Position numbers and translations under genes: made by a program. The notes under the pieces were generated by a model. The model searched no databases. It saw only the letters and a program-made list of their open reading frames with translations, and was not told the origin of the DNA. 64,000 nucleotides of DNA, from NCBI GenBank assembly GCA_964571695.1, contig CAZNDG010000008.1, forward strand, positions 15,492-79,491. The letters run 5' to 3'. The stretch comes from an uncultured Syntrophus sp. GTDB lineage: Bacteria; Desulfobacterota; Syntrophia; Syntrophales; UBA8958. Shown here piece by piece: positions 53,977 through 59,420 of the stretch (within the stretch, counting starts at the first letter, position 1; each line of letters opens with the position of its first letter).

Positions 53977-55167
53977 ATGACCGCCGTTTGCCTTTACTTT
54001 CAGGTCCACCAACCCCGACGCCTGCGGCGCTATCCGGCGTTCGCGATCGGGCGGGAGCATGATTACGAAGATGAGGCCGGCAACAGGAAGATTTTGGACA
54101 AAGTCGTCGATAAGTGCTATCTTCCCGCCAATGACCTCCTTTTCAGGCTGATCGATCGGCACGGAGGGAAGTTCCGCCTGTCCTTCTCCATAACGGGGGT
54201 GCTTCTCGATCAACTGGAGCGTTTTCATCCGGAGGTCATAAAGAGCTTTCAAGCGCTTGCCGGGACGGGATGCGTGGAGTTTCTCAACGAGACCTATTAT
54301 CATTCCCTGGCCTTTTTATACAGCGATGGGGAATTCCGCGGCCAGGTTGACCGGCACCGCCGGTGGATCGCGGAGCTCTTCGGCCAGGAGGGAGAGACAT
54401 TTCGCGCCACGGAGCTGATCTACAGCGACGACCTGGCGGCGGCTGCGGCGGAGATGGGGTACCGGGCGATCCTTGCCGAAGGGGCGGCGGCCGTCCTGGG
54501 GCCGGGGGATCCGAACCGGGTTTACGAGGCGGCCGTCGCCGGGGAAATCCGTGTATTGCCTCGCAATTACCGACTTTCCGACGACATTTCCTTCCGCTTT
54601 TCCCGGCGAGGCTGGGAGGGTTACCCCCTGACCGCGGAAAAGTACGCCCACTGGCTTCACGGGCTGCAAGGTCCGGAGGCCGTGATCAACCTGTTCATGG
54701 ACTATGAGACCTGGGGCGAGCATCAATGGCGGGAGACGGGGATCTTCTCCTTTCTGAAAGCGCTGCCGGGGGAAATCCTCGCCGGGGCGGATTTCGCCTT
54801 CGTGACGCCCCGGGAGGCGGCGGCCCGGAAGCCGGCGGGAGTGCTGTCCGTGCCGGGGTTCTGTTCCTGGGCCGACACGGAACGGGACCTTACGGCCTGG
54901 CGGGGCAATGCCATGCAGCGGGATGCACTGGAGTCCCTTTACGGGCTGGAGGAGGCGGTGGCGGCAAAGGGGGACCGGGACCTGGCGGAGCAGTGGCGGC
55001 GGCTCCAGACCTCGGACCATTTCTATTATATGTGTACGAAATGGTGCGCCGACGGGGATGTGCACAGGTATTTCAACCCCTATCCGTCCCCCTATGACGC
55101 CTACATCAACTACATGAATATCCTGGACGATTTTTCCAGGAGGGTGGGAAAGGAAAAAGGATCATGA
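53977..55167 (+). CDS. GH57-family glycoside hydrolase (alpha-amylase/AmyC-like)
   Basis: CLYFQVHQPRRLR N-terminus, WGEHQW and a (beta/alpha)7-type pattern. Trimmed to ATG 53977. Confidence 0.7.
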   Translation: MTAVCLYFQVHQPRRLRRYPAFAIGREHDYEDEAGNRKILDKVVDKCYLPANDLLFRLIDRHGGKFRLSFSITGVLLDQLERFHPEVIKSFQALAGTGCVEFLNETYYHSLAFLYSDGEFRGQVDRHRRWIAELFGQEGETFRATELIYSDDLAAAAAEMGYRAILAEGAAAVLGPGDPNRVYEAAVAGEIRVLPRNYRLSDDISFRFSRRGWEGYPLTAEKYAHWLHGLQGPEAVINLFMDYETWGEHQWRETGIFSFLKALPGEILAGADFAFVTPREAAARKPAGVLSVPGFCSWADTERDLTAWRGNAMQRDALESLYGLEEAVAAKGDRDLAEQWRRLQTSDHFYYMCTKWCADGDVHRYFNPYPSPYDAYINYMNILDDFSRRVGKEKGS

Positions 55168-58100: not shown

Positions 58101-59420
58101 CTTGCCCCCCGGATGAGGAATCTCCTCGACGCCTACCTGGGGATAGACTGGGAAAAGAACCTTCCCGACGGCGAGCGGTGGAGCCGCGTTCAGGATATCC
58201 CCGACGCCTTGCTCTGGCGGGTGCGCTATGAACTGAAACAGAAGACCATCGACCTGATCCGGGAAGACATCTCCAAGGGGGGGGCAAAGTATGGCACGGC
58301 CCATGTCTGGCGGGAGGAGCTATTTGCCAGATTGAATCCCGGGGCGCTGATGATCGGCATTGCCCGGCGTTTTGCCCCCTACAAGCGGGCGGATATGATC
58401 CTCGCGGACCTGGATCGTCTGGACCGGATCGTCAACCATCCCCACCGGCCCGTCCATCTGGTGTTTGCCGGCAAGGCCCACCCCAACGACGGCGTCGGCA
58501 AGCAGCTTGTGGAAAAGGTCGTGGGGATCTGCCGGGACGACCGCTTCCGGGGGCGGATCTTCTTCCTGGAGAATTACGACATACGGGTCGCCCGCCATCT
58601 GGTCCAGGGCGTCGATCTGTGGCTCAACAACCCCCGCCGCCCCCTCGAGGCCAGCGGGACCAGTGGCATGAAGGTGGTGATCAACGGCGTCCTCAATATG
58701 AGCGTTTCCGACGGCTGGTGGGTGGAGGGATACAACGGCGCCAACGGCTGGACGATCGGACCCGTGCTAAAGGGATATGAGGACCCCCCCCCCGATGCCG
58801 ATTTGGAAGACGGTCAGTCCCTCTACAATATCCTGGAAAATATGGTGATACCGGCATTTTACGATCGAGATGCCGCGGGTATTCCGGTCAAATGGCTGGC
58901 GGCGGTGAAACAATCCATGCAATTCCTGGCCCCCCAATTCAATACCGACCGGATGATCCAGGAGTATCTCCGGGACGTGTATGAGCCGGCGGCCCAACGG
59001 GAGAGCGAACTTGCCGCCGAGGGATATGCCCTGGCCCGGCGGCTGGCCGATTGGAAAGGTAAGCTCCCCATGCGTTTTTCTTCCCTCAATCTCATCGACG
59101 TGAGCGTCGAGGGGATTCACGGCGATACGGTCATGGTGGATCAGCCCCTGAAGATCAGCGCCCGGATCGATCCCGGCAAGCTGGCGCCGGAGGAGATCCG
59201 GGTGGAGATAATGATCGGCCGCCGGAACGGCCACGATTTTGTCCGGCCTCCGGATTGCGTCCCCTTGAAAATTGCCGGAAGATCCCCGGAAGGGGTCCTC
59301 ACCTTCTCCACGGAGTATATTGTAAGGGAGAACGGCCTGTACAATTACGGTCTCCGGGTTATCCCCCGGCACGAGCACCTGGCCTCGAAACTGGAGACGG
59401 GGCTTATTCTGTGGGGATAG
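55164..59420 (+). CDS. fusion protein: GT3 (eukaryote-type) glycogen synthase N-half plus DUF3417/GT35 alpha-glucan phosphorylase C-half
   Basis: N-half: [18 protein letters not shown] and [12 protein letters not shown]. C-half: [36 protein letters not shown] and the PLP-lysine motif EASGTSGMK. One uninterrupted 1418-aa frame; ATGA overlap with GH57. Confidence 0.8.
   Translation: [1418 protein letters not shown]

Follow-up and report, generated by a model that had tools for sequence, protein, structure and literature searches.

A predicted single polypeptide carrying a GT3 glycogen synthase and a GT35 alpha-glucan phosphorylase in a Syntrophales-related bacterium is a member of a widespread, catalogued family

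The 64,000-nucleotide stretch of DNA analyzed in this work (the window), which belongs to a Syntrophales-related bacterium (Thermodesulfobacteriota), contains a long open reading frame that seems to join the synthesis and the phosphorolysis of glycogen in one protein, and this raises the question of whether the fusion is a genuine gene, whether both halves could be active and whether the arrangement is new. The frame (55164-59420, + strand) runs without stops or frame changes in the ORF listing and the translation, and encodes 1418 amino acids in which the Pfam and NCBIfam models have revealed, in this order, a GT3 glycogen synthase, a linker, a DUF3417 domain and a GT35 clade-2 alpha-glucan phosphorylase. 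The fused protein scored above the cut-offs of the models Glycogen_syn PF05693 (331.6 bits, cut-off 27), DUF3417 PF11897 (112.9 bits, cut-off 25), Phosphorylase PF00343 (99.6 bits, cut-off 27) and alpha-glucan family phosphorylase TIGR02094 (810.6 bits, cut-off 191.7). The first-pass annotation had proposed one 1418-aa polypeptide joining a GT3 synthase to a GT35 phosphorylase, and the open frame and the domain models agree on this. All motifs quoted there were also found at the positions given for them when 55164-59420 was translated, including an 18-residue N-terminal motif (residues 10-27), a 12-residue motif (residues 429-440) and an Ala-rich stretch (residues 533-563, nucleotides 56760-56850). 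An antisense open reading frame of 1064 aa (55110-58304, - strand) was considered and rejected: it is unannotated and lies, as a shadow frame, opposite coding DNA that is conserved and high in GC.

The GT3 glycogen synthase domain (residues 1-551; 55164-56816, + strand), defined by PF05693, the GYS1/Gsy2 alignment and an AF2 model, has a GT-B fold with a C-terminal helix at residues 517-551. Residues 5-536 of the fused protein matched human GYS1 (8cvx, 7q0b; E 1e-87) and yeast Gsy2 (E 1e-76), and the AF2 model of residues 1-700 returned a confident GT3 fold, with pLDDT values mostly of 85-97, in which the helix 517-551 is long. The GYS1 motifs KVGG, HFHEW, TTHATxxGR, GRYExxNKG and E-X7-E were all matched in this half. 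The catalytic E-X7-E motif, E431 to E439 (56454-56480, + strand), lies inside a 13-residue stretch aligned to an 11-residue segment of GYS1, and both glutamates are 100% conserved in 87 full-length fused orthologues. The synthase residues K19, H157, E158, H182, R188, R305 and K311 are also present and 95-100% conserved in the same set. Judged by these alignments, the synthase half lacks none of the catalytic residues of a GT3 retaining alpha-1,4-glucosyltransferase.

The C-terminal half begins with DUF3417 (residues 574-685; 56883-57218, + strand), the alpha-helical N-terminal domain of clade-2 phosphorylases, which was recognized by PF11897 and modeled as helices by AF2 (pLDDT 78-93) and includes the NLWWTWNP motif at residues 587-594. 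The GT35 catalytic core (residues 672-1275; 57177-58988, + strand) was defined by TIGR02094 and by alignment with the phosphorylase ScGP of Segatella copri, and the beta-sheet domain at the C-terminus (residues about 1276-1418; 58989-59417, + strand), a domain described in PMC12912991, is colinear with ScGP residues about 713-846. ScGP (PDB 9l6i) matched residues 562-1413 of the fused protein with E 1e-191 and about 37% identity. The EASGTSGMK motif (residues 1162-1170; 58647-58673, + strand) contains the PLP lysine K1170 (nucleotides 58671-58673), aligned to ScGP K609, the residue to which PLP is bound in the cryo-EM structure (PMC12912991). The ScGP residues E278, H316, R507, R508, Y512 and K513 correspond to E840, H878, R1068, R1069, Y1073 and K1074, and these six residues and K1170 are 100% conserved in the 87 fused orthologues. 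This half, an orthologue of ScGP, is seen in the alignments to have the complete set of catalytic residues of a PLP-dependent alpha-glucan phosphorylase. It belongs to GT35 but lies outside the classical clade, because the canonical GlgP/MalP profile TIGR02093 gave 87.9 bits, below its cut-off of 552.9, whereas TIGR02094 was above its own.

Between the two halves, the flexible part of the linker (residues 550-571; 56811-56876, + strand) shows AF2 pLDDT values below 50 and matches the 'N-terminal loop' of stand-alone ScGP, whose residue 11 aligns to residue 563 of the fused protein. Sequence conservation in the linker is only about 25%, yet the invariant W517 and P575 are separated by 53-60 residues in 87 of the 87 fused orthologues, a pattern that points to a linker of variable sequence and constrained length.

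The fusion is the third gene of a GT4-GH57-fusion module. The first gene (52506-53789, + strand; 427 aa) codes for a GT4-type glycosyltransferase recognized by the Pfam models Glycos_transf_1, Glyco_transf_4 and Glyco_transf_5; its best NCBIfam match, TIGR02149, was under the cut-off (139 bits), and its nearest solved relative is the mycobacterial maltose-1-phosphate synthase GlgM (6tvp, E 2e-22). A GH57 family gene (53911-55167, + strand; 418 aa; PF03065, 248.6 bits) is located directly upstream of the fusion, with its stop codon overlapping the start codon of the latter (ATGA), and a purine-rich stretch precedes the fusion ATG. Linkage of GH57 to the fusion holds for most of the 80 loci considered, which come from four phyla and all match residues 1-1418, and synteny of the whole module was found in Syntrophales, Desulfovibrionaceae, Deferribacteraceae, Bacteroidales and Planctomycetota. 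A GDE-type glycogen debranching enzyme (40580-42982, + strand; PF06202, 379 bits; PF12439, 221 bits) is encoded 12 kb upstream and provides a context for phosphorolytic glycogen breakdown. The fusion is present as a single copy and is the sole GT35 phosphorylase of the genome, a 98.6%-complete draft of 116 contigs. Neither GlgC nor GalU was found in this genome above curated cut-offs, the only candidates being generic RmlA-like nucleotidyltransferases, and the eukaryote-type UDP-glucose pyrophosphorylase PF01704 had no match in it, the control genomes being equally silent.

Concerning novelty, the KEGG entry K16153 is described as 'glycogen phosphorylase/synthase [EC 2.4.1.1 2.4.1.11]' (PMC8307300; K16153 also in PMC11093988). 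By its architecture and its colinear full-length homology the fused gene is assigned as a K16153 orthologue, the KO being an annotation category, and the JGI/IMG name for the homologues is 'phosphorylase/glycogen(starch) synthase'. A database search has revealed at least 7214 homologues of the fused protein; the best 120 of them are 62-89% identical, have the same Pfam set, align over 91-100% of the query (in nearly every case 99-100%) and, with the exception of two shorter ones, are 1413-1452 aa long, many being named 'glycogen phosphorylase/synthase'. Relatives were found in at least 598 species genomes. Among the sampled Bacteroidales the fusion is the majority state (about 105 of 151 species), and its distribution in the host phylum Thermodesulfobacteriota is patchy (about 10 of 251). 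The earlier statement that GT3 enzymes are uncommon in bacteria needs to be qualified in this respect, GT3 being common in Bacteroidales and mostly in the fused form there. The fusion architecture is not new: it is already catalogued, very widespread and common in anaerobic bacteria, and its novelty is lowered because of this distribution and the K16153 entry. The searched literature yielded neither an assayed nor a structurally solved fused member, but only KO listings, a Chem Rev review and the ScGP paper; the accessible part of the 2024 review (PMC11046441) discusses prokaryotic GT3 with no mention of the fusion, and the words 'synthase', 'fusion' and 'fused' are absent from the ScGP paper (PMC12912991).

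The phylogenetic trees of the synthase and phosphorylase domains are congruent, and by their phosphorylase domains the fused genes group in a single clade, separate from the stand-alone phosphorylases that the same phylum contains. In some Bacteroidales GT3 and GT35 occur as pairs of adjacent split genes, with the GT3 gene preceding the GT35 gene as in the fusion; these pairs form one Bacteroidales clade that includes ScGP, is nested among the fused genes and is distant from the gene studied here. Because of this nesting, the tree suggests that the split pairs are derived and that ScGP is, most parsimoniously, a secondary fission product. A match interrupted by stops in genome G045 (query residues 418-1418) was considered as a decayed fusion and rejected, its phosphorylase (L108) falling in the stand-alone clade.

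Taken together with its family, the protein is very probably a two-enzyme polypeptide of the 'glycogen phosphorylase/synthase' type, with a synthase and a phosphorylase on one chain whose activities are predicted from sequence. The substrate would be shared by both domains: the outer chains of intracellular glycogen, at whose non-reducing ends the synthase half would add glucose from an NDP-glucose, likely UDP-glucose by analogy with eukaryotic GT3 enzymes, and the phosphorylase half would remove it as glucose-1-phosphate (G1P). The fusion would enforce a 1:1 stoichiometry and bring the two activities to one and the same granule. Judged by its homologue ScGP, the C-terminal half probably forms a ring oligomer clasping the glycogen particle, and the synthase domains would be held at a fixed distance from it by the 35-residue helix and a flexible segment of about 20 residues of conserved length. 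If both halves were active at once, a futile cycle would result (NDP-glucose + Pi to NDP + G1P), so the two halves would have to be regulated oppositely. Reciprocal regulation and chain-length editing by the fused enzyme are considered here as hypotheses. A more elaborate version, rather unlikely at present, would be either a granule-bound machine, in which a ScGP-like ring bears one synthase per subunit on a fixed spacer and an oligomer or nucleotide switch selects between building and trimming, or a phosphorylase that makes the primer; if true, such a switch machine or such priming by phosphorylase would be a logic of glycogen metabolism undescribed in bacteria or eukaryotes.

The two-enzyme reading has been weighed against other explanations. 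It is extremely improbable that two adjacent genes were joined into the single frame by an error of assembly or sequencing, even if the genome is a 116-contig draft and adjacent split pairs do exist in some Bacteroidales, these being limited to one distant clade. The same continuous frame runs through the orthologues of a same-genus genome (G116; 87% identity), of a MAG (89% identity) and of the isolate Syntrophus buswellii DM-2, whose genome is complete, as well as those of over 80 further independent assemblies, the identical single-frame architecture being present in at least 87 independently assembled orthologues. A split of the junction into two genes had been mentioned as a possible refutation of the fusion, and the orthologues keep instead one frame with 53-60 residues between the domains. 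This single frame shared by independent assemblies and the near-constant inter-domain spacing exclude a junction artefact, and as far as the assembled sequences tell the fused gene is a genuine single gene. A silent half, with a purely regulatory or glycogen-binding role, would avoid the futile cycle of opposing activities, but such a pseudoenzyme is very improbable. The loss of catalytic residues from one half had been contemplated as well, and none was missing in either half in the alignments and the conservation check: all 16 residues examined (nine in the synthase and seven in the phosphorylase) were found, with a conservation of 95-100% for each of them across 87 full-length fused orthologues whose overall identity is only about 40%. 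Moreover, phosphorylase activity is known for ScGP, the putatively derived split orthologue.

A different direction of flow has also been considered, in which the phosphorylase half would be mainly synthetic, converting G1P into short maltooligosaccharide primers that the GT3 half would elongate, so that the protein would be a self-priming synthase. In the accessible part of the review PMC11046441, eukaryotic GT3 synthases are described as requiring a primer (glycogenin) and no prokaryotic glycogenin is known; ScGP also catalyzes the reverse direction, its Km for G1P being good (PMC12912991), the genome has no recognizable GlgC or GalU, and the strictly conserved linker length would fit a hand-over of chain ends between the two sites. 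Nevertheless, self-priming seems quite unlikely. The fusion is the only GT35 of a genome that also encodes the GDE enzyme, and therefore phosphorolytic degradation very probably depends on the phosphorylase domain of the fusion. The Pi/G1P ratios in cells also stand against a mainly synthetic role, since they favor phosphorolysis. In addition, the conserved neighboring GT4 protein, with GlgM as its nearest solved relative, is an alternative candidate for primer synthesis or initiation, and the kcat of ScGP in the synthetic direction is low (PMC12912991). The two-enzyme reading, with degradation assigned to the phosphorylase half, is preferred.

The gene is an ordinary orthologue within a catalogued family, and the interest lies in the family itself, which provides many gut Bacteroidales, as well as syntrophic and sulfate-reducing anaerobes, with their main glycogen synthase/phosphorylase and which would join two opposing activities in one chain. 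Work restricted to ScGP misses a synthase partner that in most lineages is covalently tied to the phosphorylase, because ScGP appears to be a derived split version. The conserved length of the linker and the GT4-GH57 neighbors offer concrete, testable starting points.

In comparison with known systems, the synthase half shares with the eukaryotic glycogen synthases (human GYS1, yeast Gsy2p; CAZy GT3) the GT-B fold and all the catalytic motifs. About 23 residues of the fused protein (340-363) correspond to about 74 residues of GYS1 (368-442), the latter being the helical insertion through which the eukaryotic tetramer is built. Unlike the eukaryotic synthases, the fused protein lacks the N- and C-terminal phosphorylation tails: its first residue falls opposite GYS1 residue 25 in the alignment, and the C-terminus of the synthase runs into the linker. 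The arginine cluster that binds glucose-6-phosphate is absent, GYS1 R579, R580, R582, R586, R588 and R591 being aligned to P, E, M, R, S and E, and the Arg-rich helix 492-503 is not conserved among the fused orthologues. Control of the synthase half by glucose-6-phosphate and phosphorylation in the eukaryotic manner has been rejected because neither these residues nor the phosphosite tails are conserved. In contrast to eukaryotic GT3 enzymes, no glycogenin partner is known for the fused enzyme.

The stand-alone clade-2 phosphorylases (TIGR02094) present in most Thermodesulfobacteriota genomes have the same domain set as the C-terminal half, with 38-45% identity, but on the tree they fall into a clade of their own (SH-aLRT 100), distinct from every fusion-associated phosphorylase, and the genomes that contain them gave no GT3 match. 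The only characterized relative is ScGP (PDB 9L6I, 9MA8, 20YR), a reversible 'clade 2' glycogen phosphorylase whose pentamer, formed by the alpha-helical domain, wraps glycogen and whose decamer is AMP-driven (PNAS 2026, PMC12912991); AlphaFold failed to reproduce its real assembly (PMC12912991). [quoted passage not shown] The pentamer/decamer assembly and the inhibition by AMP are features of ScGP that, at about 37% identity, may not transfer to the fused form, and ScGP is a stand-alone protein of 852 aa whereas the fused protein carries an additional N-terminal synthase. The proteins catalogued as K16153, of about 1415 aa, show the same order PF05693, DUF3417 and PF00343/TIGR02094, with no structural difference from the fused protein.

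The fused gene occupies positions 55164-59420 (+) and, according to the ORF listing and its translation, is a single unbroken frame of 1418 amino acids, as described in the first-pass annotation. The sequence motifs quoted there were each found at their positions: an 18-residue and a 12-residue motif of the synthase half (residues 10-27 and 429-440), an Ala-rich stretch (residues 533-563), NLWWTWNP (residues 587-594) and EASGTSGMK (residues 1162-1170, nucleotides 58647-58673), all on the plus strand. Domain assignment also bears out the GT3, DUF3417 and GT35 architecture, with Pfam matches to PF05693 Glycogen_syn (331.6 bits), PF11897 DUF3417 (112.9 bits) and PF00343 Phosphorylase (99.6 bits). 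In NCBIfam the protein exceeded by far the cut-off of the 'alpha-glucan family phosphorylase' model TIGR02094 (810.6 bits versus 191.7), and remained below that of the classical GlgP model TIGR02093 (87.9 bits versus 552.9). The finding is therefore real and was correctly described.

An assembly artefact at the junction, which would have joined two genes into one, is excluded by independent assemblies. The same single frame recurs in a genome of the same genus (G116, 87% identical), in a metagenome-assembled genome (L008, 89% identical), in the isolate Syntrophus buswellii DM-2, whose genome is complete, and in more than 80 further independent assemblies, and 53-60 residues separate the invariant W517 and P575 in all 87 proteins compared. 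An AlphaFold2 model of residues 1-700 only, built from a 40-row alignment (mean pLDDT 83.8, pTM 0.73), displayed a confident GT-B synthase domain with a long helix (517-551) at its end, a low-confidence segment (550-571) and a helical DUF3417 domain (572-655). Sequence identity in the linker is only about 25%, and the fixed length despite this poor conservation suggests that the linker constrains how the two catalytic domains are placed relative to each other, instead of tethering them freely.

Both halves appear catalytically intact. In the PDB search, residues 562-1413 matched the stand-alone glycogen phosphorylase of Segatella copri (ScGP; 9l6i, 20yr; E 1e-191), and residues 5-536 matched the human and yeast glycogen synthases GYS1 (E 1e-87) and Gsy2 (E 1e-76). 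The catalytic and substrate residues of ScGP are K609 (PLP), H316, R507, R508 and K513, and its proximal AMP site consists of Y512, E278 and R508 (PMC12912991). In the alignment K609, H316, R507 and R508 correspond to K1170, H878, R1068 and R1069 of the window protein, and K513, Y512 and E278 to K1074, Y1073 and E840, all of them present. The C-terminal half is an orthologue of ScGP, for which reversible glycogen phosphorylase activity is proven. On the synthase side, GYS1 and Gsy2 have aligned equivalents of the KVGG loop (K19), HFHEW (H157, E158), TTHATxxGR (H182, R188), GRYExxNKG (R305, K311) and the E-X7-E pair (E431, E439). The loss of catalytic residues contemplated in the first-pass annotation was not observed, since all 16 residues checked are present, and each of them is 95-100% conserved when 87 full-length fused orthologues, with only about 40% identity between phyla, are aligned with MAFFT. 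This conservation disfavours a pseudoenzyme in either half and, as judged from sequence, the chain carries two intact, conserved active sites.

The window gene is an ordinary orthologue of a widespread architecture already catalogued in databases. KEGG orthologue K16153 is defined as 'glycogen phosphorylase/synthase [EC 2.4.1.1 2.4.1.11]' (PMC8307300) and is in use in PMC11093988. A search of a 5.8-billion-protein collection yielded at least 7214 homologues; the best 120 almost all measure 1413-1452 amino acids, except for two shorter ones, and carry the same Pfam set, and several are named 'glycogen phosphorylase/synthase' or 'phosphorylase/glycogen(starch) synthase'. With the GT3 half as query, 28 of the 150 best 50%-identity clusters are 1300-1450 amino acids long and a further 16 probably represent truncated fusions. 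When one genome per species was scanned, relatives turned up in at least 598 genomes; the best 80 are nearly all full length (78 extend to residue 1402 or beyond) and belong to Syntrophales, Desulfovibrionaceae, Deferribacteraceae, many Bacteroidales families and Planctomycetota. Among 151 sampled Bacteroidales species, about 105 have the fused gene and about 20-25 a split but adjacent gene pair. When 251 genomes from the window's own phylum were sampled, only about 10 had the fusion; most of the others have a stand-alone clade-2 phosphorylase and no GT3.

A maximum-likelihood tree of phosphorylase domains (IQ-TREE, LG+G4, 854 columns, 75 rows) placed 43 fused and 11 split-adjacent domains in one clade (SH-aLRT 100), apart from 21 stand-alone phosphorylases of the window's phylum (100). 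This clade contains a Thermodesulfobacteriota/Deferribacterota group (98), which includes the window protein, and a Planctomycetota and Bacteroidota group (87). The split pairs are separate ORFs of about 550-587 and 837-870 amino acids, in the order GT3 then GT35, and form a single clade (100) nested inside the Bacteroidota, so that only two trait changes are needed. The GT3-domain tree (147 rows) is congruent, with the same two fusion-associated groups, the split genes together among fused ones (99) and 61 GT3 proteins, all of the stand-alone type, in a clade of their own (100). Read most simply, the genes fused once, in the distant past, the fusion spread from phylum to phylum, and a single Bacteroidales lineage later split it again; as the root is a midpoint, this polarity rests on parsimony. 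ScGP, added with the sequence printed in the PDB alignment, grouped within the split clade (100; it is 69% identical to the split-clade sequence L110), and hence the one relative that has been characterised seems to have been split secondarily.

Three fused genes deep within the Bacteroidota clade (L041, L024 and L072) come from contigs labelled Heimdallarchaeota, Thiohalospira (Pseudomonadota) and Candidatus Egerieisoma (Clostridiaceae), probably through binning contamination or mislabelling rather than transfer. In a genome from another family of the window's phylum (G045, C32:11845-14850), a match upstream of a phosphorylase of the stand-alone clade reaches query residue 418 and passes through two stop codons; it may simply be a neighbouring GT1-type gene.

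The neighbourhood of alpha-glucan genes around the fusion is also conserved. A GT4 glycosyltransferase and a 418-aa GH57 protein (52506-55167, +) directly precede it, and its start codon, preceded by a purine-rich stretch, overlaps the GH57 stop codon (ATGA). The nearest solved relative of the GT4 protein is the mycobacterial maltose-1-phosphate synthase GlgM, and the GH57 protein has no solved relative at E<1e-3. The GT4-GH57 pair is linked to the fusion in most of 80 loci from four phyla (Syntrophales, Desulfovibrionaceae, Deferribacteraceae, Bacteroidales and Planctomycetota), directly upstream or, in the Alistipes group, about 2.3 kb downstream; the three genes constitute a conserved, non-classical alpha-glucan module. 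A debranching enzyme of the eukaryotic/archaeal GDE type (GDE_N and GDE_C; 40580-42982, +) lies 12 kb upstream of the fusion. Upstream of the module are also a sigma-54 activator, a metallophosphoesterase and a GGDEF diguanylate cyclase (48345-52420, +), and 134 nt downstream of the fusion is a long-form phosphate acetyltransferase gene (pta, 59555-61657, +). Two antisense open frames opposite real genes, 55110-58304 (-, 1064 aa) and 50180-52687 (-, 835 aa, no Pfam match), look like shadow ORFs of G+C-rich coding DNA.

In the window's own genome (98.6% complete) the fusion occurs once and no other GT35 is present, no GH13 branching enzyme was found, and neither GlgC nor GalU scored above curated cut-offs. 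As possible sources of NDP-glucose there are only short, generic nucleotidyltransferases, the best candidate being an RmlA-like protein (243 aa, C36:2490-3287) that adjoins prepilin peptidase, argS and ffh, outside any rhamnose operon. Another hydrolase/transferase fusion for alpha-glucan, a second GH57 joined to a GT5-like glycogen-synthase domain (TIGR02095, 125 bits, below cut-off), forms one 900-aa frame on another contig (C27:4196-6898).

Both domains of the window protein would act on non-reducing ends of intracellular glycogen, the synthase half adding glucose from NDP-glucose and the phosphorylase half releasing glucose-1-phosphate. By analogy, the donor is likely to be UDP-glucose, which eukaryotic GT3 enzymes use and on which glycogen synthesis in Prevotella bryantii reportedly depends. 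The fusion would hold both activities at a fixed stoichiometry and bring them together on the granule, perhaps arranged on a ring like that of ScGP. Running both at once would cost one NTP equivalent in every cycle, and the two halves are therefore expected to be regulated in opposite directions. The main rival explanation casts the phosphorylase half as a synthetic enzyme that makes primers in place of glycogenin; it is weakened by the fact that the genome has no other phosphorylase for degradation.

Features that regulate eukaryotic glycogen synthases are missing from the window protein. The glucose-6-phosphate arginine cluster is absent, its positions aligning to P, E, M, R, S and E; an Arg-rich helix (492-503) is not conserved among fused orthologues. 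Unlike the eukaryotic synthases, the protein has no phosphorylation tails, and it has about 23 residues (query 340-363) where GYS1 has about 74 (368-442), a segment that builds the tetramer in eukaryotes.
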